From positions 19,421 through 83,420 of the IMG/VR virus record IMGVR_UViG_3300042731_008413: 64,000 nt of DNA; one strand, 5' to 3'. The notes beneath the pieces were generated by a model. It saw only the letters and a list, made by a program, of their open reading frames with translations, was not told the origin of the DNA and searched no databases. Shown here in pieces: positions 2 through 11,430 of the stretch (position 1 is its first letter; every line of letters starts with the position of its first letter). The position numbers were made by a program, and so were the translations under genes. This DNA comes from a virus.

Positions 2-151
2 AAGGGGCACGTCAATATGTTCAACGTTGAGCAATTGCAAGAGTTGATGGAAAAGGCCGGGTTTGAAACGGTTGAGTGTTACCATGACCAACGGGTGGAT
101 GGCTACGAAACGCAGCATAATTGTGTGACGGGGTTATTCAAGAAGGGGTAG
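2..151 (+). CDS. C-terminal fragment of a probable class I SAM-dependent methyltransferase (5' end outside window)
   Basis: Frame 2 reads KGHVNMFNVEQLQELMEKAGFETVECY...KKG*. HxxxFxxxxLxxLxxxAGF is a typical C-terminus of class I methyltransferases in glycan loci. Confidence 0.55.
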   Translation, partial: KGHVNMFNVEQLQELMEKAGFETVECYHDQRVDGYETQHNCVTGLFKKG

Positions 152-153
152 GG

Positions 154-1113
154 ATGAACATTCTTTGTGTCAGTACCGCAGCCATTACCACGCCCCCCGC
201 CCAGGATGGCTACGGGGGAATGGAACGGGAAATGGCCTGGCTCATTCGGGGTCTGAAGGAGTTAGGTCATCACGCTGGTCTGGTGGGCAAGCCGGAATCT
301 AAGGCGGAAGTCGATATGCTTTACGCTTCCGATGACGAAAAGAAATATCCCCAATTGGTTAGTGAAGCTATCAAAGACTACGATATCATCATCGACTTTA
401 GCCACGATAAGACTATTGGGCGTGAGTGGCCTGACAAACCCCAGATCAACACCTATCAAGTGATGACTATTTCTCACCGGGTCAATCCGGTTTTTATTAG
501 CTATGGCCAGCGGCGGCACATTGGCATTGATGGCCCGGTTATCTATTATGGCATCGATTTGAATGTTTACCCCTGCTACGATGGCCCTCGGGATGATTAT
601 CTACTTTACGTAGGGTCCCTGATTATCGAGAAGCGACCTCATTGGGTAGCTGAGTTAGCTCAATTGACTGGTCACAAGGCTGTTATTGCTGGCCCGCGCT
701 GGCAACAGGAATATTGGCCGACTATCGACCAGTTCAGCCAGTTAGATCACGTTACGGTGTTGGATGAAGTGGCCGGCCAGGAGAAGCTGGAGCTTATTCA
801 GCGGGCCAAGGCTCTGGTTCATCCGGTAGGGGGCAAGGGTTGGGTTGAAGCCGGGGCTATTATCGTCCTGGAAGCCCTGGCTTGCGGCACCCCGGTTATC
901 TGCACTTCCAACGGCTGTCTGCCGGAATACATTTCTCATAACCTCAATGGTTTTATGGGGGCCAATGTCCCGGAGATGATGATTGGGGTCAATTCGTTGT
1001 GGTCCATTCAACCGGGTCGTTGCCGGCTGAGTGTTAAGCATTTTAATTATCAAAGGATGGTCAGGGATTACGAGTCGCTGGCTACAGAAGTGATTGGAGG
1101 CAAACGATGGTAA
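154..1113 (+). CDS. Glycosyltransferase family 4 (GT-B)
   Basis: N-terminal PP..GYGGMER, EKRP and EALACGTPVI motifs. ATG 154 follows the upstream stop. Confidence 0.9.
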   Translation: MNILCVSTAAITTPPAQDGYGGMEREMAWLIRGLKELGHHAGLVGKPESKAEVDMLYASDDEKKYPQLVSEAIKDYDIIIDFSHDKTIGREWPDKPQINTYQVMTISHRVNPVFISYGQRRHIGIDGPVIYYGIDLNVYPCYDGPRDDYLLYVGSLIIEKRPHWVAELAQLTGHKAVIAGPRWQQEYWPTIDQFSQLDHVTVLDEVAGQEKLELIQRAKALVHPVGGKGWVEAGAIIVLEALACGTPVICTSNGCLPEYISHNLNGFMGANVPEMMIGVNSLWSIQPGRCRLSVKHFNYQRMVRDYESLATEVIGGKRW

Positions 1114-1439
1114 GTGACAAAGATTTGCAAAAGAACGAAGTTGAAGAGATGGTGGAATTGCCGGACATTCCCGATCCCAAGCCAGGGCCAAAGACTACTG
1201 AGTTTTATCTGACCCTGCTTTCCTACGTTCTGGCGGCGCTGGTGTTGTATGGAGTGGTCACAGCGGCGGAGGCTCAGGCCATTCTGGACAACCTCAACAC
1301 CTTTATCGGAGCAACAACAGGGCTGATTGTGGCCCTGGGACCGGTGGCTTCAACGGTGATGTATATCTACTCCCGGACTAAAGTCAAGTCCGGCACTACC
1401 GAGGCCAAGGCCAAGCTGTTTGATTCGATGCTTAAATGA
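1107..1439 (+). CDS. Small membrane protein, holin-like
   Basis: KPGPKTTEFYLTLL motif (KTTEFW-like small phage membrane proteins), two hydrophobic helices, basic C-terminus. Confidence 0.55.
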   Translation: MVSDKDLQKNEVEEMVELPDIPDPKPGPKTTEFYLTLLSYVLAALVLYGVVTAAEAQAILDNLNTFIGATTGLIVALGPVASTVMYIYSRTKVKSGTTEAKAKLFDSMLK

Positions 1440-2134
1440 TCGTTATCGTCCCATCCTACAATGACCGCCCCTTTATGGAGCGGTTGTTGGAGTCGCTTTA
1501 CACTGAACCTCCAGGAGCTTCGTTTCGAGTCCTGGTGGTCAGCGACTTTTCCAACGATGGCACCGAGGAATGGCTTTCTAGCCTGAAGGGTGTCGATGTT
1601 ATTCGCCCCGACCAGAAAGCCTACTTCACCCGCGCCTGTAACTTGGGGCTAGAGTGGGGGTTGCGCTACACCGACGAGGAGTGGTTATTCCTGCTTAATT
1701 CGGACACCATCGTTACCCCGGATTGGTGTGGGGCGTTACAGGCTACCGGCAAAAAACTAAAAGCGGGCATTGTGGGGGCTACCCTGTTGAATATGGATGG
1801 CACTATTCAACATCTGGGGGCTTATGGGGTGGGGTACCATTTCAACATTAATAAGCATTGGGTGCGCTACCGACAAGACAGGCTGGTACCGTGGGTGACC
1901 GGGGCGGCGATGTGTATAAACCGAAGCGTTCTTAAAAGAACTGGGACTTTACCCCCCTATGCTTACAAGCAATATGACGATTCTGATCGGCGGTTTTGTT
2001 GGGAAGCTAGAATTAAGTATGGAGTGGAAGTTGCAGTTTCGGTGGGGTGTCAGATTTATCACGATACTCATGAGGCCCGATCCATCAGAATGAGTCGAGG
2101 GGATTACACCCGGAGGGATATAGCCGATGGCTAA
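1436..2134 (+). CDS. Glycosyltransferase family 2 (GT-A)
   Basis: VIVPSYN, VVSDFSNDGT, LLNSDT, WVTGAAM motifs. Confidence 0.9.
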   Translation: MIVIVPSYNDRPFMERLLESLYTEPPGASFRVLVVSDFSNDGTEEWLSSLKGVDVIRPDQKAYFTRACNLGLEWGLRYTDEEWLFLLNSDTIVTPDWCGALQATGKKLKAGIVGATLLNMDGTIQHLGAYGVGYHFNINKHWVRYRQDRLVPWVTGAAMCINRSVLKRTGTLPPYAYKQYDDSDRRFCWEARIKYGVEVAVSVGCQIYHDTHEARSIRMSRGDYTRRDIADG

Positions 2135-2618
2135 TATAGATTTGGTGCCGGAGTTTTGGAAAGAGGCGTCTGTGTCTACCAGGATAATGGCTTCAAAAAA
2201 AGGGGCTGTAGCAGCCTTTGCTGAGTGGCTTGACAAAACCCCCCCTCAGCAAAATCGTCTGACTCCCAGAACAACCAATTTGTCATACTTGTTTTCTCGC
2301 TATGGACATATTCTTACTTACGAAGGTATTTCCAGGGTGGGTGACAACGGGTTGCACCATTTCAAGATTGTTATTGATGCCCGACCTTGGGACGAAAGCG
2401 ATAAATCCGGCTTGGGATTAGATTCCGTATTTATTGCGAATCAGTTCGGGTTAGCCGGGCTACATATCAACGATATATCTTTTTCAAAAGGGCGACATGA
2501 CTTTGAATTGGATTTGCGATGTTATGGCGAGTTCAAAGGGATCAATTGCCCTAAGCCAGAAATATTACTTGACGAATGTGGTTGGGCGCAAGTTGGGCCA
2601 ACAATAGCGATCTTATGA
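2127..2618 (+). CDS. Hypothetical protein
   Basis: 163-aa ORF overlapping both neighbours in the operon. Confidence 0.6.
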   Translation: MANIDLVPEFWKEASVSTRIMASKKGAVAAFAEWLDKTPPQQNRLTPRTTNLSYLFSRYGHILTYEGISRVGDNGLHHFKIVIDARPWDESDKSGLGLDSVFIANQFGLAGLHINDISFSKGRHDFELDLRCYGEFKGINCPKPEILLDECGWAQVGPTIAIL

Positions 2619-3316
2619 CAGAAACAATCCTGTTTCTCCATATCCCCAAAACCGGCGGCACCAGCCTGATCCAGATTATGGAATGGCAGTACGGGCAAAT
2701 TTCCAAAAGCCCTGATGCTGACTTTTTAGACCTATCGGAGTGGCAACGGTTCAGCGGTAGATTCGATAAACAGGCCGCTGCCGGACATATCCCTTATGGC
2801 ACCCACGAAATCTTCCGGGATTGCCGGTATATCACTATCCTGAGACATCCGGTAGACAGGATCGTTAGCCTCTATCATTATATCAATCAACTGGCGGGTG
2901 GGGCTGTTGATTTCTGGAAGAATCTAGGTGTCACACAAAAGATGACTTTACTGGACTTTGTGAATTTACCGATAGCCAATTTGCGGAATGGGATGTGCCG
3001 CCAGCTAGTTGGTAAGCCATTCTATTTTGAACCAACAGACGGTTGGGGGATGACCCCTCATTATTATCGCAAGGCCAAAAGTAATTTGAAGCCAATGCAA
3101 ATCGGCATTACTGAGCAATTCCATAAAACAATTCGTAAGTTCGAGATGGAATTTGGTTGGAAAGTGGTTGATATTCCCCATCTGAATAAGGTTGATTATC
3201 CTCGTTTTGATATGTCTTCCGAAGCGATGTTTGAGGTCTACGAAGCCATCAAACGACATAATGAGTATGACATCTTATTGTACCATGCGGCTGTAGATTG
3301 GAGTGGCTTGCGATGA
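2615..3316 (+). CDS. Sulfotransferase family 2-like protein
   Basis: FLHIPKTGGTS (5'-PAPS binding loop) and LRHPVDRIVSLY (3'-phosphate binding). ATG 2615 overlaps the upstream stop. Confidence 0.85.
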   Translation: MTETILFLHIPKTGGTSLIQIMEWQYGQISKSPDADFLDLSEWQRFSGRFDKQAAAGHIPYGTHEIFRDCRYITILRHPVDRIVSLYHYINQLAGGAVDFWKNLGVTQKMTLLDFVNLPIANLRNGMCRQLVGKPFYFEPTDGWGMTPHYYRKAKSNLKPMQIGITEQFHKTIRKFEMEFGWKVVDIPHLNKVDYPRFDMSSEAMFEVYEAIKRHNEYDILLYHAAVDWSGLR

Positions 3317-4332
3317 CCAGATTAGCAATGGTGCGCGATCAACATCTCAACGTCTGGGACATTGGCAACTATTACGGTGTAATAAACCACGGCATCGAGC
3401 TTCTGGTTTGTGGTATGTCTCAGGCCGATTGGGATAGCATTATGGAATATTATCCCCAGGCCAAGTTCCTGAATTACAGCCATATCTCCGAGGTATTCGA
3501 GCAAGAGCCGGATGTAATCGATGTCCCAGATCCTTTCTATCCCTTCTCTCAATACTTTACCGAACGGTTTAAGCGAACGGTAGTAGTTGGTTGGGAGAAT
3601 CTACCGGGCAAGACGTTGTTTAGCCGGGGAGCGCAACGATGCCTGGAACAAGCCTGGAAATGCACCGCTCGCAGCCCGATGGCTCGCCACGAATTGAAAT
3701 TCAACGGGGTGCCGAATAGCAAGATAAAGGTCATCCCAGGGGCAGTAGATACCGATTTCTTTAAGCCTGACATACCGGTTGAGAAACGCCGGCGAGCAGT
3801 GTTGTTTGTGGGGCGAGTGACCCAGGAAAAGGGCTTTCTGGACATCTTATGGGCATTGCACCAATCTGGTATCCCTCTGTGGGTAGCCGGAGCATCTGAA
3901 CCACCTTTGCAGTACCAAAAATGGTTAGAGCAACTTGATGTTGAAATCGAATGGCTTGGTTTCCTGAATCGCACCGAATTACGAGACCTCTACCAACGAG
4001 CGGGGGTGTTGTGTGTTCCATCGATTCCGTTGGTCAACGACACCGACCCGTTTGCTCAATGGTCCGAACAGTTCGGACAGGTCTTTATCGAGGCAATGGC
4101 TTGTGGTTGTCCCATTGTTTCGACCAATAGCGGGGCTATTCCCTGGGTGGTCAAGGGAAGCAACCATTTGGTCGATCCCAGGGATTGGCCAATGCTTCTG
4201 GGGGAGATCAAGGCGTTGCTGGATAACCCGGATTTACGAATGTCGGCTTCGATTCTGGGGCGGCAATTCGCGGTTGAGTTTTACGATCAGAAAGTGATAG
4301 GCCAACGGATTAAGGAGTGGTACGAACTGTGA
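3313..4332 (+). CDS. Glycosyltransferase family 4
   Basis: LFVGRVTQEKG and EQFGQVFIEAMACGCPIV motifs. Confidence 0.9.
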   Translation: MTRLAMVRDQHLNVWDIGNYYGVINHGIELLVCGMSQADWDSIMEYYPQAKFLNYSHISEVFEQEPDVIDVPDPFYPFSQYFTERFKRTVVVGWENLPGKTLFSRGAQRCLEQAWKCTARSPMARHELKFNGVPNSKIKVIPGAVDTDFFKPDIPVEKRRRAVLFVGRVTQEKGFLDILWALHQSGIPLWVAGASEPPLQYQKWLEQLDVEIEWLGFLNRTELRDLYQRAGVLCVPSIPLVNDTDPFAQWSEQFGQVFIEAMACGCPIVSTNSGAIPWVVKGSNHLVDPRDWPMLLGEIKALLDNPDLRMSASILGRQFAVEFYDQKVIGQRIKEWYEL

Positions 4333-4598
4333 AGGACGCAGATGGAAAAAGCATTGATAATAATTGGATTGTTGATGCCATCTTAACCCATAGGCTTGTC
4401 GTCAGGCCATCGCTTTTGGGTCGCCAATGGATTGTAGGGCAATTCAAAGGTGTTACCGGAGATGGCAAGGTTTATTGTGTCCTGGAAACAGTTTGTGAGG
4501 GCATTTCTTTGTGGGATGCCGTTTATTTATCTGTAACAAAAATCAAAGAATTGCAGGAAAAGAATGAAAATATGTTGCTCGATGATTTGTCTCAATGA
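4329..4598 (+). CDS. Hypothetical protein
   Basis: Short ORF coupled to its neighbours (GTGA overlap). Confidence 0.45.
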   Translation: MKDADGKSIDNNWIVDAILTHRLVVRPSLLGRQWIVGQFKGVTGDGKVYCVLETVCEGISLWDAVYLSVTKIKELQEKNENMLLDDLSQ

Positions 4599-5280
4599 AG
4601 AAGATTACATTCAGGGGGCTATCGCTTCCATTGCCCCCTTTACCGACAAACTGGTAATAGTCGATGGGGGATCGACCGACAACACCCAACGGGCTATTGC
4701 CGAAGTTTGCAAAGACCTCGATCTGGATTATCGATTAGACCAACACAAGTGGACCAACGATTTTGCCAAGCAGCGGCAATATGCGTTGGATTTGGTGCCG
4801 GAGCATTTCGACTGGTGGTTTCGGATCGACGCCGATGAACAATGGGGACAACTCATTCGAGACAATTTCAAAGACATCCTGGCCTGCCTCCCAGAAGAAT
4901 GTCAGGCGATCAAGATCAAGCAGGTCAACCTGGTGGATGTAGACCAGGCAGAGCAACGATTCCTGTATTCCGCTTCCAGGGGTGGGTGGGAATCACACCC
5001 GAGAATTTTTAGAAATATCAGACTCCCGGACGGTAACCCAGCCTGGCGCTGGCAGGGGCAGGTTCACGAATATTGTCAACTGCTTACCCGGCAGGGGTTG
5101 CAGTGGCCTGACCCTATTGCTTGCTGGAACGTCAATTCGGTTCACTTTGGCTGGTTGGTCAACAGCCGGCGAGAAGACCGGGAAGAACTTTACGAGCAAA
5201 TACCGGGGTCAGGGTTCGTCAAGGGTAGTCTGACAGAACGCACTCATGTAGTCAGAGAAATGTGGCAGGGGCTTATCTAA
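4564..5280 (+). CDS. Glycosyltransferase family 2
   Basis: NEEDYI, VDGGSTDNT, DFAKQRQ, IDADE, WQGQVHE motifs. Confidence 0.9.
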   Translation: MKICCSMICLNEEDYIQGAIASIAPFTDKLVIVDGGSTDNTQRAIAEVCKDLDLDYRLDQHKWTNDFAKQRQYALDLVPEHFDWWFRIDADEQWGQLIRDNFKDILACLPEECQAIKIKQVNLVDVDQAEQRFLYSASRGGWESHPRIFRNIRLPDGNPAWRWQGQVHEYCQLLTRQGLQWPDPIACWNVNSVHFGWLVNSRREDREELYEQIPGSGFVKGSLTERTHVVREMWQGLI

Positions 5281-8200
5281 ATGGACATTGCTGTTTTTGC
5301 ACATCACGTTGGGTCTCAGGGTCTTAAGCCATCAGGACAGTATGGCGGTGGGGAACTTTTGACGTTTGGTTGGCTGTCGGCCTTGCAAAAGTATTACAAT
5401 GTAATGACCGTAGTGCCGAATGGGGTCTACCCAGCTTTCGATTCGGCCTACGAATACGGCATTGACCTGTCAGGTATCGACTGGCGACCAGTGGGGGATA
5501 CAGCCGACTGGATTCGGAAATATGATTGCCTGATAAACATCAGCCACAGTAGCTATATGCCCCCTATCTGCCAGCGCAATATTATGGTGACGATGTTCCC
5601 CCAACAGCCGGATTGGGATACGTCCGGCTACGATACTATTTGCGCTATCAGTCAATTTTCGGCGGACTGGATCAAGCGATATTGGGGTCGTGAAGCCAAA
5701 GTGGTTTATCCCCTTCTACCGGTGCAAGATACCATCGACAGAATCGAGCAAGCCGGCTACGAGAAGCAAAACAACATTGTAGCCATTGGCCGATTCTTTA
5801 ACGTGCCGTGGGGTAATAACAAGAGTCACAGTACGTTGATCTCGGCTTTTCAGGGGATGTATAAAGGTGATTGGGCCTTGACGTTTGTAGGGTCGGTCCA
5901 GGATCAGAAATATCTTCAAGAAGTCAAGCAAGCGGCCAATGGTGACCAGCGCATAAAGTTTTTTCGCGATCTCAAGCGGGAGCAATATCTGGAACTGTTG
6001 GGTAAGTCCAGGTTTTTGTGGCACGCGGCAGGATATGAAGCCACCAAACCATCTTCAATGGAGCATTTCGGGATTATTGCGGTAGAAGCTCAAGCCGCGG
6101 GCACCCAGCCATTTGTATTCAATGGAGGTGGTATTGTTGAGATACCTGGGGTTATTCCCTGGGACACTCCGGCCCAACTGAGTGAATACACCGTGGTTGA
6201 AATCGAAAAGCCAACCCCCAACCCGATGCAAGAAAATGCCCTGACTTTTGACATCGAACGTAATACCGAACGGCTTTTGGAAATTATCGAGGACCCTCAA
6301 GTGGTTGTTGTTCCCAAACCTGAGCAAGCCAAGATTTATGTGGGTGACCCCCATCCCAATGACATCAAAGTAGGGGTGATTTCAGATGATCCCAACATCA
6401 CCACTGGCTTTGGGGCGGTTAGTCGAGCAGTTGTTAAGGGACTGATTAAGCGGGGTTTTCGGGTGGCTGCAATGGGTATCCAGAACCCCATCGTCGGCAA
6501 GACCAAATTGGTACCAGAAGACATCAGACGAATCTTCGGAGAAGTAGTCAATAATCCCCAACTCCCCACAGCCAAAATGATGACTCGGGTGTTCGAGGAG
6601 AAGTTATCTGAACTGGAATTGTGTACCACCTGGCGGGGCTGTTCCCACGATCCCTCCGGGTTTGATATGATCGAGCAGTTCCTTAAAATCGAGAAGCCGG
6701 ACGTGCTTTATATCAATTACGACCCCGGCAACATTCGTAACATCCTGAATGGTATCCAGGATGCCCATGTTGACATCCCTATCGTGGCTTATGTCCCCAT
6801 CGAGGGTAGCCCGGTCATCCCCCAATACATCGAGATGTTACGAACCATTAAGGTGATGAATGGGGAGCCGATTGTCTATACCTATGCCGGGCAGAGGGCG
6901 GTAATGGAGGCTGGTGGACCAAAATGCAGGGTAGCTCATCACGGTTGTTTTTCTGGTGATACACTAATTACTTTAAGTGATGGATCGAAAAAACGCATAG
7001 ATCGCATTGTGGCAGATAAAGATCATAGTGTTTTGGGGACACATAATGGCAACCCGGTTATTTCTTGTGTTTATGATTGGATGACTATCCCAATGATGGA
7101 TAGTCATATATTAAAAATAACTTTTGACACCGGCGATACATTAAGAGTTACGCGAGATAACCTAGTTTTTACCCAAGATGGATGGATTAAAGCAAATGAT
7201 TTGGTGGTCGGTAGTAGGTGTGGTATAATCAATACTAGTACACCACACGCAAATGGAGACTATGATGCCAAATCAAAAAATATGGACCAAAGACGAGGAG
7301 AGTTGGTTGAAGGCCAATTATCCTACAATGACTCAAACCGATTTGAAAAAGTCATTGGGGAGAACTTGGCCCTCAATAAAAAGAAAGGCGCAAAGACTGG
7401 GCTTATACAGGGAAATAAAAAATCATCACAGAAGATGGACCAAAAAAGACTTGGATTGGCTCAAGTGGAATTACCCTTATCTGGATCAAGAAAAGATAGA
7501 ATCTCACTTAGGGCGAAAATGGAGAGCAATTCAAATAGCAGCCAGGAAAATGGGGGTAGCCAGAACAAACTCCGCCGTGTATCAAAAGTCAATAGATCAA
7601 AGGCCAAAACTAACATCGGAAGATTGGGCTTATTTGGCTGGAATAATCGATGGAGAAGGTCATTTGACGTTATCAAAAAGCAATCGAAAAAGTGGTTTTG
7701 TTTTGTCTCCAAAGATAGGGGTGGCAAATCAAAGCAAGGCTTTGATGGATTGGATAGTTTTGTCTCTTCCTGTTTATGTTCATTGCGACAATGGTGTAGA
7801 ATCTGGGTGGGGGTGGTGTTACCGAGCGCAGATAATTGGGTTCAAGGTAATTCATGTATTAAATGGTATTCTTCCATATATGAAAATAAAAAAAGAAAGA
7901 TGCAAGATTCTGATTTCTTTTTGCGAAAGAAGAATGGCTTTGGGGAATCAGGAACCGTATTCAGAACAAGATTTAGAGGATTACCAGAAGATGAAAAAAC
8001 TAAACTCAAAAAAGGCTTTTCGGTCTCTTGGGGAGTGATAACAAATATCGAATTGGATCACGAATCGATAGTCTACGATCTGAAAACTAGTACAAGTAAT
8101 TTTGTTGCAAATAATATTGTTGTTCACAATTGCGATCACGCCCCGTTCAGGATGCTTGACCCGGAAACCCGCAAGCAGTTAAAAATCGCTTGTGGGTGGG

Positions 8201-8922
8201 GCAATAAAAAGGTAATGATGTTTGTGGGGCGCAATAAGCGTACCAAGGGTTTTGGAACACTCCTTAAAACGGCCAGAATCCTCAAGGATATGGGCCGGGA
8301 TGACATCGTGTGGTATCTCCATACCTGGGTCTGGGACCAGATGCCCAACTCCTCGATGCCCCTGGATCAATGGGCAAAGCAGTATGGGATAGCTGATCGA
8401 GTAATGTTTCCCGAAATTCAACACCAGGTCTACGGCATCCCCTATGATGAGCCAGCCACCCACCCCCACATCGATGAGAACGAATTGGCCCAGATGAGTG
8501 AGCAAGACGCGGCCAGGAAACTGGCCAGGATTGCCTTTAACTCTCTGTCGCTTATCGAGCGATATGGTATAGCTACCGCGTTTATCAACGCTTCTGAAGT
8601 TGAGGGGCATGGCTTGACATACTTGGAAGCAATGGGTTGCGGGGTGCCGGTAATCAGCGTCGATGACCAGGGAGTTCAGCAGGAGGTCATCGGGGACGCG
8701 GCCCTGTATGTTCCGGTCAAACATTGGGATGATTTTCATACCGGAGCAAGATTGGCTCAGGGTGATCCCCAGGACTTTGCCAGGGCTATCATCGACCTGG
8801 TTGATAACCAGGATTTGTATAACGAAATGCAACAGAAGGCTCTGGAACGGTATCAACAGTTTAAGTGGGATAAGACGATTGATATTATCGCCAAAGCTAT
8901 CATTGAAAGGTACGTGGTATGA
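5281..8922 (+). CDS. Tandem GT4-GT4 glycosyltransferase interrupted by an intein
   Basis: Two GT4 signatures (EHFGIIAVEAQAAG; EGHGLTYLEAMGCGVPV). Intein between HHG|C and HN|C. Confidence 0.9.
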   Translation: MDIAVFAHHVGSQGLKPSGQYGGGELLTFGWLSALQKYYNVMTVVPNGVYPAFDSAYEYGIDLSGIDWRPVGDTADWIRKYDCLINISHSSYMPPICQRNIMVTMFPQQPDWDTSGYDTICAISQFSADWIKRYWGREAKVVYPLLPVQDTIDRIEQAGYEKQNNIVAIGRFFNVPWGNNKSHSTLISAFQGMYKGDWALTFVGSVQDQKYLQEVKQAANGDQRIKFFRDLKREQYLELLGKSRFLWHAAGYEATKPSSMEHFGIIAVEAQAAGTQPFVFNGGGIVEIPGVIPWDTPAQLSEYTVVEIEKPTPNPMQENALTFDIERNTERLLEIIEDPQVVVVPKPEQAKIYVGDPHPNDIKVGVISDDPNITTGFGAVSRAVVKGLIKRGFRVAAMGIQNPIVGKTKLVPEDIRRIFGEVVNNPQLPTAKMMTRVFEEKLSELELCTTWRGCSHDPSGFDMIEQFLKIEKPDVLYINYDPGNIRNILNGIQDAHVDIPIVAYVPIEGSPVIPQYIEMLRTIKVMNGEPIVYTYAGQRAVMEAGGPKCRVAHHGCFSGDTLITLSDGSKKRIDRIVADKDHSVLGTHNGNPVISCVYDWMTIPMMDSHILKITFDTGDTLRVTRDNLVFTQDGWIKANDLVVGSRCGIINTSTPHANGDYDAKSKNMDQRRGELVEGQLSYNDSNRFEKVIGENLALNKKKGAKTGLIQGNKKSSQKMDQKRLGLAQVELPLSGSRKDRISLRAKMESNSNSSQENGGSQNKLRRVSKVNRSKAKTNIGRLGLFGWNNRWRRSFDVIKKQSKKWFCFVSKDRGGKSKQGFDGLDSFVSSCLCSLRQWCRIWVGVVLPSADNWVQGNSCIKWYSSIYENKKRKMQDSDFFLRKKNGFGESGTVFRTRFRGLPEDEKTKLKKGFSVSWGVITNIELDHESIVYDLKTSTSNFVANNIVVHNCDHAPFRMLDPETRKQLKIACGWGNKKVMMFVGRNKRTKGFGTLLKTARILKDMGRDDIVWYLHTWVWDQMPNSSMPLDQWAKQYGIADRVMFPEIQHQVYGIPYDEPATHPHIDENELAQMSEQDAARKLARIAFNSLSLIERYGIATAFINASEVEGHGLTYLEAMGCGVPVISVDDQGVQQEVIGDAALYVPVKHWDDFHTGARLAQGDPQDFARAIIDLVDNQDLYNEMQQKALERYQQFKWDKTIDIIAKAIIERYVV
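7219..7258 (+). promoter_or_regulatory. Extended -10 promoter and RBS inside the intein, driving the nested endonuclease
   Basis: TGTGGTATAAT at 7219-7229 (perfect TRTGnTATAAT). GGAG at 7255-7258 before ATGs at 7262/7265. Confidence 0.7.
7262..8038 (+). CDS. LAGLIDADG homing endonuclease with N-terminal Myb-like repeats, nested in the +1 frame of the intein
   Basis: WAYLAGIIDGEGHLTL motif and ILPYMKIKKER. Two WTxxExxxLxxxYP repeats. The ORF track starts at 7253; the RBS favours 7262/7265. Confidence 0.88.
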   Translation: MMPNQKIWTKDEESWLKANYPTMTQTDLKKSLGRTWPSIKRKAQRLGLYREIKNHHRRWTKKDLDWLKWNYPYLDQEKIESHLGRKWRAIQIAARKMGVARTNSAVYQKSIDQRPKLTSEDWAYLAGIIDGEGHLTLSKSNRKSGFVLSPKIGVANQSKALMDWIVLSLPVYVHCDNGVESGWGWCYRAQIIGFKVIHVLNGILPYMKIKKERCKILISFCERRMALGNQEPYSEQDLEDYQKMKKLNSKKAFRSLGE

Positions 8923-9326
8923 GGCGCAGCGCACCGGTAGAGACCAAACCTTACGTCAAGCCCGAAGTCAAACATCGAGACCCACCCAACGGCACTTTCT
9001 GGAAATGTGCGGGCTGTGGGTCTGACAACTTCGGCAAGTTCATCGATGGTGAGCTTCATATCAAGTATCGGGAGCGGGTAATGGTAGTCGGGGGGATGGT
9101 TGAGGTTCATTGTCGTTTTTGCGGTACTCGTAATCAAATCGATTTGGCTGTGTACCCTTATAAGGTGCAGGTTCACTTCAATGCCCCGGAATTTGATGTA
9201 GAAATCACTGAGGCGGCCTTGCGCCTCGCTCAAGAGAACGGGTTGAATATCAGGCGACTTCAGGGGTCGGGTAAGGACGGGAAGATCGTGGTGGGGGATG
9301 TGAAGGGGGCTTTGGGGTTGAAATAG
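8919..9326 (+). CDS. Com-like zinc-ribbon protein fused to an E3-binding (PSBD-like) domain
   Basis: WKCAGC...VHCRFCGTRN (Mu Com-like). ITEAALRLAQENGLNIRRLQGSGKDGKIVVGDV matches the peripheral subunit-binding domain pattern. Confidence 0.7.
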   Translation: MRRSAPVETKPYVKPEVKHRDPPNGTFWKCAGCGSDNFGKFIDGELHIKYRERVMVVGGMVEVHCRFCGTRNQIDLAVYPYKVQVHFNAPEFDVEITEAALRLAQENGLNIRRLQGSGKDGKIVVGDVKGALGLK

Positions 9327-9329
9327 GGG

Positions 9330-9358
9330 TTGACAAATTTTCTATCTTATGGTATTAT
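9330..9358 (+). promoter_or_regulatory. Sigma70-type promoter
   Basis: TTGACA-17-TATTAT with TG extension. The 19 bp GGGTTGACAAATTTTCTAT is identical to the promoter at 56909. Confidence 0.8.
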
Positions 9359-9364
9359 CTTTTC

Positions 9365-9503
9365 AGTGTAGATTATCTCATTTTATCCTCCTTTGTTAGT
9401 TGTCTGCTTCATCTGACCAATGGGGCAGACCTGGACTTATAATAGACGCTAAATAATATAAGTGATTAGAAAGAGGGCGTCCTAGGCGCCCTCTTTCGCT
9501 TTC
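9365..9503 (+). ncRNA. Putative ~135-nt small RNA with anti-SD/anti-start sequence
   Basis: Lies between promoter 9330 and terminator 9469, with no ORF in the track. Contains CUCAUUUUAUCCUCCU (9377-9392). Confidence 0.55.
9469..9503 (+). terminator. Intrinsic terminator, possibly bidirectional
   Basis: GAAAGAGGGCGTC-CTA-GGCGCCCTCTTTC hairpin followed by GCTTTC. Confidence 0.75.
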
Positions 9504-9533
9504 TCGATGGACATCCCCATACCTATAAAAATG

Positions 9534-9566
9534 TAATACGTTCTGACTGTGGAAACGGTCGGGGCG
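9534..9566 (+). repeat. 33-bp hairpin direct repeat, copy 1 (copy 2 at 11502-11534)
   Basis: TAATACGTTCTGACTGTGGAAACGGTCGGGGCG vs TAACACGCTCTGACTGTGGAATCAGTCGGGGTG, 28/33 identical. Abuts the CRISPR repeat. Confidence 0.8.
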
Positions 9567-9719
9567 CGGACCACCCCCACACCTGTGGGGAAATGTTATC
9601 CCGGAGGGTTAGCAGTTCTTCCAGATCACGGACCACCCCCACACCTGTGGGGAAATGGTTTCGCCACTGTCTATTCCCTCACTCAGATCACGGACCACCC
9701 CCACGCCTGTGGGGAAATG
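9567..9719 (-). CRISPR. CRISPR mini-array, 3 type I-E-like repeats and 2 spacers
   Basis: 29-nt repeat CATTTCCCCACAGGYGTGGGGGTGGTCCG (minus) at 9567-9595, 9629-9657, 9691-9719. 33-nt spacers, period 62. The CCCCAC/GTGGGG hairpin is typical of I-E repeats. Confidence 0.92.
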
Positions 9720-9915
9720 ACTTAAATGGCCTATGAGATAGAGTAAATTCCCCAAATGAATCTTATTAGGTTGTGAGGTTGACAATCCAACAACCTCTCT
9801 GTAGCCCTCACCGATCTGGGTCCAAGCGACGAATCTCCCCACCGATTCAGTTACGACATCTACAGCCTCAGTTGTGTTCATAGTCAATCGCAGACGATTC
9901 AGCCTAACGGCCAAA
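9720..9915 (-). ncRNA. Putative omega-RNA/tracr-like scaffold of TnpB
   Basis: Lies directly 3' of tnpB. Nested complementary segments (TTGAC/GTCAA, CTGTAG/CTACAG, TGAATC/GATTCA). GAGGCTGTAGATGTCGTAAC...GAGGGCTACAGAGAG resembles, from recall, 3' scaffolds of QRDLYSAFLA-type TnpBs. Confidence 0.6.
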
Positions 9916-11301
9916 TTAGAGACCAAAACTGGTCGGTCCATTTTGGTCTATATCGTCCAATGCCGCCTGCAAGAGCGGTCCCACCCTCGGCCATTGCTCA
10001 TTGGCAACGACTGCATTGAACGTTCCATCTTCGATACAGGTTGCTAAAAATGCGCTATATAAATCTCTTTGAACCACCTCCCCATCATCGAATTTATGCC
10101 ATCTTTGCGACAAAGACTTCTTTTTGAATTCGCCGGTTTTGTGGTCTAGCTGGCTCAGTTTTGTGCTATAGGTAGAGAACTCTTCAACTAGACCGTCATA
10201 ATCATCCATCTTTTGCTTCAGCCGGGCTACAAACATCCCCGGAGCACGCATGCCAACGGATTTTCCGAACATCTTTTGAAATGCAACGTAAGACAACTTT
10301 TCCAAACGGATTACGTTACCCATTTGGAGAATCTGGTTGATTAGTTGTCCGTGTAGCGACTTGCGGTATTCTGCTTGTTTCCTTTTTAATTCGCTTAATT
10401 TTATTTCGGTCTTTAGTTGCCTATTTGATTTTACCCATCGTTTGAGTTGCGAACGTGGTTTAACGGTTCCATCTGTGTTGTAATTGTCAGGGTTGTTAGC
10501 GCGCCGTTGTCGGTCTACCTTACGTTGTAATAGTCGTATATCTCGTTGAATATCCTCTAGTTCCGCGCAGAATTGTTTTAGAAACGCCATATCTTGAGAA
10601 ACAACAGCGACAGTTGAGGGGCCGATGTCCAACCCAACAACACCTTTCCCAAGAGAATGTCTTTTGTATGGTTTGCCTACATTGACGAGTTGAGCAAAGA
10701 ACCTGGTTTTTCCATTGAGTTCACGACGAATCAACCGGACAAATTTTATTTCAGAATTCAGGCCATGAGACATTATCGGGTCATCGTAATCTATAATAGC
10801 CTCAAGTTTGATCTTCTTCCCGTTGCGCCCGGAATTCCACACAACACAGTCATCTCTCCAAATAATGCCTTGTAAATTCGTTACTCCCTCAACCGAATTT
10901 AACTGCCCAAACCTTTTGAATTTTGGCCTCCCCCTTTTTGGGTCAAACAAATATTCGCTCACCCAGGTAAAAGCCCTGGATGCCAGTTTTTTAATGGTCT
11001 GACTGTCTAAATGATAACCTAACCAGGAGTAACCAAATTGTTTAGCGAAGAAATGAATGTCGTATTCCCTAAACCCAAATTCTTTGTTGAGCCTGACAAA
11101 TTCAGCGGTTCTTTCTTTGCCTTTTGGGAGTAGTCGAGCCTTTTGCCAATCCTTTGATTCCCTCATCAACTTCAAGCGGCGAAGGGATTCGCCCAAGCAA
11201 GCATTATAGACCTGCCTGGCCGCCTCAAAACGCTTATTGAGTACAGACTCCTGAGTGGGGGTTGCTTTTAGGGGGATTTCGGTAATAAATCTATCAGACA
11301 T
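9916..11301 (-). CDS. tnpB: TnpB/Cas12-like RNA-guided endonuclease (461 aa), RuvC D-E-D intact, zinc-finger cysteines absent
   Basis: N-terminal helix ARQVYNACL. RuvC-I VGLDIGPS, RuvC-II IRLEKLSY, RuvC-III QRDLYSAFLA. No tnpA adjacent. Confidence 0.9.
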   Translation of the reverse strand: MSDRFITEIPLKATPTQESVLNKRFEAARQVYNACLGESLRRLKLMRESKDWQKARLLPKGKERTAEFVRLNKEFGFREYDIHFFAKQFGYSWLGYHLDSQTIKKLASRAFTWVSEYLFDPKRGRPKFKRFGQLNSVEGVTNLQGIIWRDDCVVWNSGRNGKKIKLEAIIDYDDPIMSHGLNSEIKFVRLIRRELNGKTRFFAQLVNVGKPYKRHSLGKGVVGLDIGPSTVAVVSQDMAFLKQFCAELEDIQRDIRLLQRKVDRQRRANNPDNYNTDGTVKPRSQLKRWVKSNRQLKTEIKLSELKRKQAEYRKSLHGQLINQILQMGNVIRLEKLSYVAFQKMFGKSVGMRAPGMFVARLKQKMDDYDGLVEEFSTYSTKLSQLDHKTGEFKKKSLSQRWHKFDDGEVVQRDLYSAFLATCIEDGTFNAVVANEQWPRVGPLLQAALDDIDQNGPTSFGL

Positions 11302-11430
11302 TTTTTAGATAGTTATCGATGGCTCGCCTGACATGCTCGGCCATTGATAAGCCGGTATCACGAACGAGTTGCTTTAATCTATTGTATTGAAGAGTAGTCA
11401 AATAAATGTTTATGCGTTTCATATACATCT

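Follow-up and report, generated by a model that had tools for sequence, protein, structure and literature searches.

Where does an intein carry its homing endonuclease when the reading frame between its splicing blocks encodes none? This question is raised by a glycosyltransferase gene on a 64,000-nucleotide stretch of phage DNA (the window; bases 19421-83420 of the 83,420 bp IMG/VR virus record IMGVR_UViG_3300042731_008413, which has direct terminal repeats). An initial annotation, made from the nucleotide letters of the window, had described an intein whose own frame is open throughout and a LAGLIDADG protein encoded in the +1 frame of the same DNA. Our analysis indicates that, in this phage, the conserved HG|xD site of a GT4 glycosyltransferase gene very probably harbors a class-1-type intein whose endonuclease slot is occupied by a separate, overlapping +1 gene and not by an in-frame domain.

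A glycosyltransferase intein and the gene nested in it

The intein comprises 395 aa (6946-8130), beginning with CFSGDTLI and ending with NNIVVHN, followed by Cys. Its borders are exact because an intein-free homologue aligns precisely across the junction. Specifically, the related phage contig L003, whose flanking gene shows 66% amino acid identity and whose gene order is shared with the window, reads AYHG|ADHADF where the window reads AHHG|(395 aa)|CDHAPF, with no gap and no extra residue. Together with the uninterrupted host open reading frame (ORF, 5281-8922), this comparison upholds the intein and the open host frame of the initial annotation. The insertion site is a conserved HG|xD stretch between two GT4 lobes, and the intein of the viral locus L005 occupies the same site. 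The splicing residues are present, namely Cys1 (TGT 6946), the terminal VVHN (ending 8130) and Cys+1 (TGC 8131-8133), and C1, H394 and N395 are invariant across 15 related inteins (alignment A3). The Pfam Intein_splicing profile was matched with 42.3 bits (cut-off 35.8; 8.9e-11), the two ends of the match lying 388 residues apart. Position +1 is Ala in the intein-free L003 allele and Cys in the window, and homing must therefore co-convert the Cys codon.

The host-frame product was modelled by AlphaFold (AF2 in Table 1) from an alignment of the 15 related inteins. Residues 1-98 and 362-395 were predicted confidently, while residues 99-358 had a predicted local distance difference test score (pLDDT) below 50. 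Compared with mini-inteins, the confident parts gave VIA Z scores of 20.9 for the Mtu RecA splicing domain and 20.3 for Npu DnaB (root mean square deviation, rmsd, 1.8 A, 135 residues aligned). According to this model, the intein ends are predicted to fold as a HINT domain of a class-1-type intein. The central host-frame peptide is without relatives, as a search of the intein against 5.8 billion proteins returned only the intein itself and weak matches to the splicing blocks of other inteins, covering 12-24%. The low confidence and the lack of homologues agree with the earlier statement that the central ~260 codons of the intein frame hold no endonuclease motif; the host-frame spacer is a by-product of the overlapping gene. 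Rfam gave no match at E <= 1 within 6500-8600, so no intron was found, and protein splicing is favored over an intron because intein blocks are present and the host frame is open.

The ORF in the +1 frame lies between the splicing blocks, the N-lobe ending at about 7239 and the C-lobe starting at about 8029, and contains only one LAGLIDADG motif in its 261 aa. It matched phrog_5046 of the PHROGs database (5.6e-14, residues 123-256), and its N-terminal part matched phrog_323 (1.3e-12) and phrog_1891 (3.2e-7). Pfam did not recognise the protein at its thresholds, the sole sub-threshold match being HMG_box, NCBIfam gave no match and a sequence search of the PDB returned weak matches to I-CreI and I-CvuI over residues 120-227. 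The AlphaFold model of the protein (pLDDT 88.5) consists of two three-helix bundles followed by a LAGLIDADG core, which Foldseek placed on I-CvuI, I-CreI and I-MsoI with probability 1.00 (for I-CreI 1bp7, TM score 0.72, target-normalised, and rmsd 2.5 A over 145 columns). Invariant positions in alignment A1 of endonuclease homologues are A123-G127, D130, G131, E132, P205 and K210; both the Glu at the catalytic position of DGEG and the Lys of PY(L/M)xxKK are invariant. Based on sequence and model, the nested gene is predicted to encode an I-CreI-type single-motif LAGLIDADG homing endonuclease with two N-terminal helix-turn-helix (HTH) repeats and cleavage activity. The phrog_5046 match, the model and the Foldseek placement thus corroborate the single-motif LAGLIDADG protein of the initial annotation. 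The two repeats that it called Myb-like are retained as two predicted three-helix bundles; the Myb/SANT families of Pfam did not match them.

The endonuclease of the window is absent from the 5.8-billion-protein collection, in which 15 homologues of 144-331 aa were found (P0001-P0015), several with PF14528 or PF00961. The nearest homologues consist of one to three 'WTxxE...LGRT...KAxxLGL' repeats, then AYLAGIIDGEG, and the repeats are shared with P0001, P0002 and P0004. A profile search of 1.8 billion representatives yielded 44,174 relatives at E <= 1e-3, the best 150 of which span 159-509 aa and hence are of free-standing size. As initially proposed, a gene of free-standing type thus fills precisely the slot that a mini-intein offers for an endonuclease.

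The HTH repeats (residues 5-101, window 7265-7567) also have tblastn matches (H14-H22) in mycobacteriophage loci that carry a DNA methylase or HNH endonuclease annotation and are ShiLan-type hidden-HNH inserts. From these alignments, the same DNA-binding module seems to be common to different out-of-frame homing nucleases. A further hit (H2), the LAGLIDADG gene of Streptomyces phage Gilson, was rejected as an intein case; it adjoins thyX and does not lie inside an intein.

Table 1 Features of the intein locus in the window and relatives with a nested +1 endonuclease gene
Feature	Position or loci	Strand	Details
Host ORF	5281-8922	+	1213-aa GT4 glycosyltransferase; no interruption; Pfam Glycos_transf_1 and related families match entire ORF
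N-extein	5281..6945	+	N-terminal GT4-like module and first half of second GT4 module; ends ...RVAHHG; aligns with L003 (...FAYHG)
Intein N-terminal splicing lobe (residues 1-98)	6946..7239	+	Cys1; Pfam Intein_splicing; AF2 pLDDT 82-94
Extended -10-like element (candidate)	7221..7229	+	TGGTATAAT; perfect TGnTATAAT; 24 nt upstream of first endonuclease ATG (7253)
Host-frame spacer (intein residues 99-361)	7240..8028	+	K/S/G/R/L/N-rich, predicted disordered
Nested +1-frame homing endonuclease gene (predicted)	7253..8038	+	261 aa from ATG 7253; further ATGs 7262, 7265; TGA 8036-8038
GGAG Shine-Dalgarno-like motif	7255..7258	+	3 nt before ATG 7262, 6 nt before ATG 7265
Two tandem three-helix (HTH, Myb/SANT-like) repeats (predicted)	7289..7549	+	WTKDEESWL...RLGL and WTKKDLDWL...KMGV; AF2 helices 10-19/25-32/36-45 and 61-70/76-83/87-96
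LAGLIDADG core (predicted)	7616..8035	+	alpha-beta-beta-alpha-beta-beta-alpha; motif YLAGIIDGEG 7631-7660
Intein C-terminal splicing lobe, blocks F and G (residues 362-395)	8029..8130	+	ends ...NNIVVHN; AF2 pLDDT 77-93; phmmer match to Npu DnaB intein C-terminus
C-extein	8131..8922	+	second half of GT4 module; starts Cys+1; Pfam Glycos_transf_1, NCBIfam GT4 families; aligns with L003
Viral nested +1	L005, L006, L010, L033		host: GT4 glycosyltransferases, at least three different sites
Viral nested +1	L008, L017		host: DUF2201 metallopeptidase/VWA proteins
Metagenome nested +1	L085, L090, L095, L104		host: GT4 glycosyltransferases
Metagenome nested +1	L097, L112, L117, L134		host: DUF2201 metallopeptidase/VWA proteins
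Metagenome nested +1	L154		host: AAA ATPase
Metagenome nested +1	L120, L125		host: Rad51/RadA-like gene with two inteins, nested ORF in each
Metagenome nested +1	L091, L092, L101, L131		no host family assigned; L131 close relative of L033
Metagenome duplicates	L087, L106, L108		sequences same as L006 and L010

Constraint on the two reading frames

Over 7238-8040, neither the host frame nor the endonuclease frame has a stop codon, while the third frame has 27; for the host frame, 14-17 stops would be expected. Relative to the nested ORF, the host frame is at -1, and stops can arise in it only where a T-ending nested codon precedes a codon beginning with AA, AG or GA. Such at-risk codons make up 85 of the 261 endonuclease codons, and T-ending codons precede none of the 85 compared with 69 of 175 elsewhere. 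When the endonuclease ORF was shuffled among synonymous codons, the host frame was open in none of 20,000 shuffles (mean 17 stops, minimum 7), and the analytic probability of zero host-frame stops is 2e-8 with the codon usage of the phage and 1e-10 with that of the ORF itself. The open host frame is maintained by selection.

The same arrangement recurs in relatives of the endonuclease. Profile scans were carried out, 80 viral and 80 metagenome loci were kept, and stops were counted in the other frames over each match. The closest IMG/VR relatives (L005, L006, L008, L010, L017 and L033) are all nested in the +1 frame of inteins whose host frame is free of stops, as are 17 of the 80 metagenome loci, counting duplicates of viral loci, so that 20 unique nested endonuclease cores, including that of the window, are available. 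Each nested locus has the endonuclease ORF inside a much longer ORF whose frame lies one base upstream, with intein blocks and an end reading (V/I/C)HN|C or HN|S, and in most of them the Pfam Intein_splicing match spans the endonuclease slot. Nesting in the other same-strand frame was found at none of these loci. All six viral relatives tested fully avoid T-ending codons before at-risk codons; for the individual loci, an open frame has a probability of between 4.5e-3 (at 63% G+C) and 8e-8 (at 36% G+C). By comparison, in the equivalent frame of 111 free-standing relatives the median is 8.5 stops per 100 codons, and none of the 111 has zero. The comparison of homologues suggested in the initial annotation thus turned up no stops in either frame and about 20 relatives sharing the design.

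A quick FastTree analysis of the endonuclease core (143 columns) resolved little beyond the pairing of the window with L005. The two are sisters with a Shimodaira-Hasegawa-like support of 96, and the L005 intein is found at the same HG|CD glycosyltransferase site. Nested members all fall in one half of the tree and are clustered, requiring 9 changes versus 18.9 in shuffles, which is compatible with a single origin of the nested members. In the RadA-like gene, a +1 nested LAGLIDADG ORF was seen in the second intein on L120 (1-2184) and in the first on L125 (1374-2957). Separately, in many free-standing relatives (L013, L034, L051, L068, L071, L074 and others) one antisense frame is open along the whole endonuclease gene, including at 34-40% G+C; in L051, L068, L071 and L074 this frame runs on into a capsid-like gene on the other strand, and no intein blocks were seen. 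Reading these loci as antisense inteins was rejected, since the frames barely outlast the gene or enter the neighbor gene and lack intein blocks.

Selection on the protein encoded by each frame was compared using the related pair L033 and L131. Within the overlap, substitutions are most frequent at host position 1, corresponding to endonuclease position 3 (0.51), and least frequent at host position 3, corresponding to endonuclease position 2 (0.15), while outside the overlap they are highest at host position 3 (0.49-0.52). Amino acid identity over the overlap is 0.70 for the endonuclease versus 0.37 for the host-frame peptide, and the ratio of nonsynonymous to synonymous substitution rates (dN/dS, Nei-Gojobori) is about 0.11 in the endonuclease frame, where dS is saturated, and above 2 in the host frame. 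All ten pairs compared point in the same direction, including the window and L005 (identity 0.33 in the endonuclease frame versus 0.11 in the host frame). From these identities, ratios and substitution positions, the overlap is constrained for amino acid sequence in the endonuclease frame and only for openness in the host frame. The frame-specific dN/dS comparison proposed at the outset, run here on L033 and L131, therefore gave purifying selection in the endonuclease frame, and the early claim of selection on both frames holds together with the shuffling result, that on the host frame being for openness only. Within the otherwise unconserved spacer, a host-frame motif G(L/I)xGxxxRWRG (GLFGWNNRWRR in the window, 7613-7660) recurs in 15 of 15 aligned inteins (A3); judging from the sequence, it is the shadow that the endonuclease motif AYLAGIIDGEG casts in the host frame.

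If the nested ORF were silent or decaying, with only the host frame at work, the locus would be a mini-intein with a long linker. The homing cycle does predict decay of the endonuclease after fixation, and this exact intein has no close relatives in the collections searched from which its own selective state could be read. However, the 261-codon ORF is intact in DNA of 39% G+C in which the third frame accumulates its 27 stops, every family-invariant residue is present, the structural model is confident and the related pair is under strong purifying selection in the endonuclease frame. Targets are also available, since an intein-free allele exists in a relative. A silent or decaying nested gene is thus unlikely.

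Start and expression of the nested gene

The nested gene offers three in-frame ATGs, and its start is likely 7262 or 7265, with ATG 7265 most likely because of its spacing to GGAG. An in-frame TAA (7226-7228) lies 27 nt before the first ATG, making the endonuclease start independent of the host frame. The initial annotation had proposed a perfect extended -10 element and a GGAG ribosome binding site for this gene. Both sequences are present; as a promoter, however, the former depends on a single consensus match, and TGnTATAAT has 5 matches across the two strands of the 64 kb, compared with 1.95 expected. The extended -10 element is plausible but dispensable, since the endonuclease ORF is already part of the host mRNA, on which internal initiation would be equally workable. 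That the endonuclease is expressed early and the host gene late, as also suggested, is speculation without support.

The same-strand overlap with the endonuclease in the +1 frame relative to the host could also point to programmed +1 ribosomal frameshifting, producing an endonuclease fused to the intein N-lobe. The upstream TAA would restrict such a shift to 7229-7262, where no slippery heptamer was seen, whereas three in-frame ATGs and GGAG are found at the expected start. Free-standing homologues begin at the same point of the protein, and the relatives also have endonuclease-frame stops just upstream of the ATG. Fusion by frameshifting is accordingly regarded as very unlikely.

Canonical inteins have in-frame LAGLIDADG domains and the record is a metagenome assembly, so an ordinary intein disrupted by two compensating frameshifts, whether sequencing or assembly errors or recent mutations, was considered as well. 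An independently assembled 63-kb Logan contig (depth 42) is identical to 5000-9300 without any indel; it probably derives from the same sample and hence does not represent independent data. Compensating frameshifts further predict about 14-17 stops in the host frame, of which there are none, and leave the stop immediately upstream of the endonuclease ATG and the same +1 layout in about 20 independent relatives to be accounted for. The endonuclease itself belongs to the free-standing type with a single motif and brings its own DNA-binding repeats at the N-terminus. Taken together, this makes compensating frameshifts extremely improbable. Finally, a chance opening of both frames by purine-rich, T-poor composition, to which the positive AT and GC skew of the region lends some substance by lowering stop frequency on this strand, is hardly conceivable given the stops of the third frame in the same DNA, the shuffles preserving protein and codon usage that never open the host frame, and the same property in relatives at 36-63% G+C.

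Several observations nevertheless weigh against a functional intein with a separately expressed endonuclease. Block B reads T-R-D-N, with Asn opposite the His of the Ssp and Npu DnaB inteins in the phmmer alignment, and so lacks the TxxH motif. The same Asn is found in L005 (TRDN) and L092 (THDN), while TxxH is kept in most nested relatives. The block-B His is nearly universal in inteins, a few active inteins being without it; going by the sequence, N-terminal activation may therefore be atypical or weak. The candidate promoter rests on one 9-mer match; a two-hexamer promoter scan does not list 7221-7229, the -35 region being weak (3 of 6 positions match). The start contexts of the relatives have no Shine-Dalgarno motif in common. 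Lastly, the intein has no close relative in the collections searched, so that frame-specific selection was measured on relatives and not on the window copy. Single-sequence scans of viral and metagenome contigs found no close relatives of either the intein or the endonuclease, and tblastn of the intein against GenBank phages gave no match; the relatives came only from the profile scans.

For a class-1-type intein with a separate overlapping gene in its endonuclease slot, the anatomy of the locus and the established biology of inteins and LAGLIDADG proteins suggest the following cycle. The host gene would be translated straight across the overlap into a 1213-aa precursor, in which the overlap would appear as a disordered spacer of roughly 260 residues. 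The flanking HINT lobes would then associate and splice out the 395-residue insert, leaving an 818-aa transferase. The endonuclease would be translated separately from ATG 7262 or 7265 behind GGAG, its template being the host mRNA or else an RNA begun at the 7221-7229 element, and, by analogy with its family, would probably form a homodimer. Cleavage of intein-free alleles of co-infecting relatives would be followed by repair that copies the intein along with the nested gene and the Cys+1 codon.

NNU and NNC are always synonymous. We infer that the nested gene is always found in the +1 frame because this is the only overlap in which each host-frame stop (T|AA, T|AG or T|GA) yields to a synonymous T-to-C change at an endonuclease third position. 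Common descent of the composite element would explain the constant frame equally well. More tentatively, and with considerable doubt, we hypothesize that one old composite lineage, consisting of a mini-intein and an overprinted I-CreI-type gene, moved among unrelated host genes (several glycosyltransferase sites, DUF2201 metallopeptidases, an AAA ATPase and a RadA-like gene) while keeping its +1 overlap. In such a lineage the frame would be dictated by the code, and the overlap would be adaptive in giving the dimeric endonuclease its own level and time of expression, independent of the host protein. Neither the composite lineage nor the code-based frame rule is described in the accessible parts of the literature on out-of-frame intein endonucleases.

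Known systems, genomic setting and implications

The initial annotation knew of no described intein with this design, which proved incorrect. Gosselin, Arsenault & Gogarten (bioRxiv 10.1101/2025.01.02.630785) describe non-canonical inteins of actinobacteriophages whose endonucleases are read in a frame of their own, LAGLIDADG and Vsr-like ones antisense and endonuclease VII-like ones on the same strand ('frame 3'), and cite Gorbalenya 1998 for what is there the first out-of-frame intein endonuclease. As in the window, the endonuclease ORF of the actinophage inteins lies between the splicing blocks in a non-host frame, the host frame is free of stops with a translation of no recognisable structure, and the endonuclease is related to free-standing phage genes, the proposed origin being invasion of an intein by a free-standing gene. 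In contrast to the same-strand +1 I-CreI-type endonuclease with HTH repeats found here, their LAGLIDADG genes are antisense only, and their same-strand genes are endonuclease VII-like. Their hosts are terminase, polymerase, ThyX and minor capsid genes, whereas the window and its relatives use glycosyltransferase, DUF2201 metallopeptidase, AAA ATPase and RadA-like genes. The layout is thus already described, and the novelty here lies in the type and frame of the endonuclease, in which gene families act as hosts, in how large the lineage is and, as an interpretation, in the frame rule.

Other out-of-frame or separate endonucleases offer partial parallels. The endonuclease of the Synechocystis dnaX intein is described as antisense, and the out-of-frame dnaX case is credited to Gorbalenya 1998 (bioRxiv 10.1101/2025.01.02.630785). 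In addition, by its title and term counts, a further preprint (bioRxiv 10.64898/2026.09.14.751524) concerns a cyanobacterial dnaX intein with an out-of-frame LAGLIDADG homing endonuclease. To the extent indicated there, this endonuclease, like that of the window, lies outside the frame of its intein; the host gene and the lineage are different. In mycobacteriophages, the ShiLan-type HNH endonuclease hidden in DNA methylase genes (Arsenault, Gosselin & Gogarten, Genes 2025, PMC11855218) is likewise an out-of-frame gene at a conserved site with the host frame open across it. It is encoded in 'frame 3' and has no splicing domain and hence no intein, whereas the overlap in the window is flanked by HINT lobes. 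Co-conversion of the +1 residue in homing is also discussed in the cited papers. In fractured genes (Dassa et al. 2009, as cited in 10.1101/2025.01.02.630785), the two halves of a split intein flank a free-standing endonuclease gene. From that citation, fractured genes share with the window a separately translated endonuclease gene of free-standing type in place of an endonuclease domain; their host gene is divided into two ORFs joined by trans-splicing, while the host frame of the window is continuous (5281-8922) and splicing in cis is predicted. Finally, the homodimeric I-CreI, I-MsoI and I-CvuI of group I introns resemble the window endonuclease in fold and in having a single LAGLIDADG motif, an acidic residue in the catalytic position and the conserved Lys of the ...PY(L/M)xxKK... 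segment. Identity is only about 20%, however, and the window protein adds two N-terminal HTH repeats and resides in an intein, not an intron.

The intein-bearing ORF is the final gene of a glycosyltransferase gene run (121-8922) and is followed on the same strand by genes for a head maturation protease (11387) and a major head protein (13511). Five successive genes within 121-8922 have glycosyltransferase or sulfotransferase-like PHROG matches, and their position immediately upstream of the head genes suggests modification of virion or surface glycans. In the intein-free L003, the glycosyltransferase (2216-4650) is encoded by two adjoining ORFs of 300 aa and 509 aa with a stop between them, compared with one fused 1213-aa ORF in the window. 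A TnpB-type element with repeats (ORF 9916-11301, minus strand) lies between a 135-aa ORF and the head protease gene of the window (9330-11380). It is missing at the matching place in L003 (5067-5253) and therefore appears to be a recent insertion into an otherwise syntenic block.

The phage sequence is present in wetland metagenome sequencing runs. Wetland run X2 from another study contains two small contigs identical to 7716-7890 and 7910-8060, together with extein-like pieces that are 8-13% diverged. This pattern could reflect recent transfer of the intein between related phages; with a depth of 2-3, 326 bases and a chance of about 8% under the same phage at low cover, it is taken as a hint and not counted as evidence.

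For annotation, nested genes of this kind are invisible to gene callers, so that inteins carrying them are wrongly labelled as decaying or as mini-inteins and go unnoticed as mobile elements. Possible handles for finding them are the absence of T-ending codons before AAN, AGN or GAN and the 'RWRG' footprint of the LAGLIDADG motif in proteins annotated from the host frame. The disordered spacer of roughly 260 residues gives a linker length tolerated by a cis-splicing intein, splicing being predicted, and the compact endonuclease with its HTH repeats is a candidate meganuclease scaffold. More generally, the overlapping layout is a recurrent and stable design of environmental phages, not a curiosity of actinophages, and extends to non-replicative hosts such as glycosyltransferases. 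It supports a model of intein origin in which the splicing domain comes first and is later invaded by an endonuclease.

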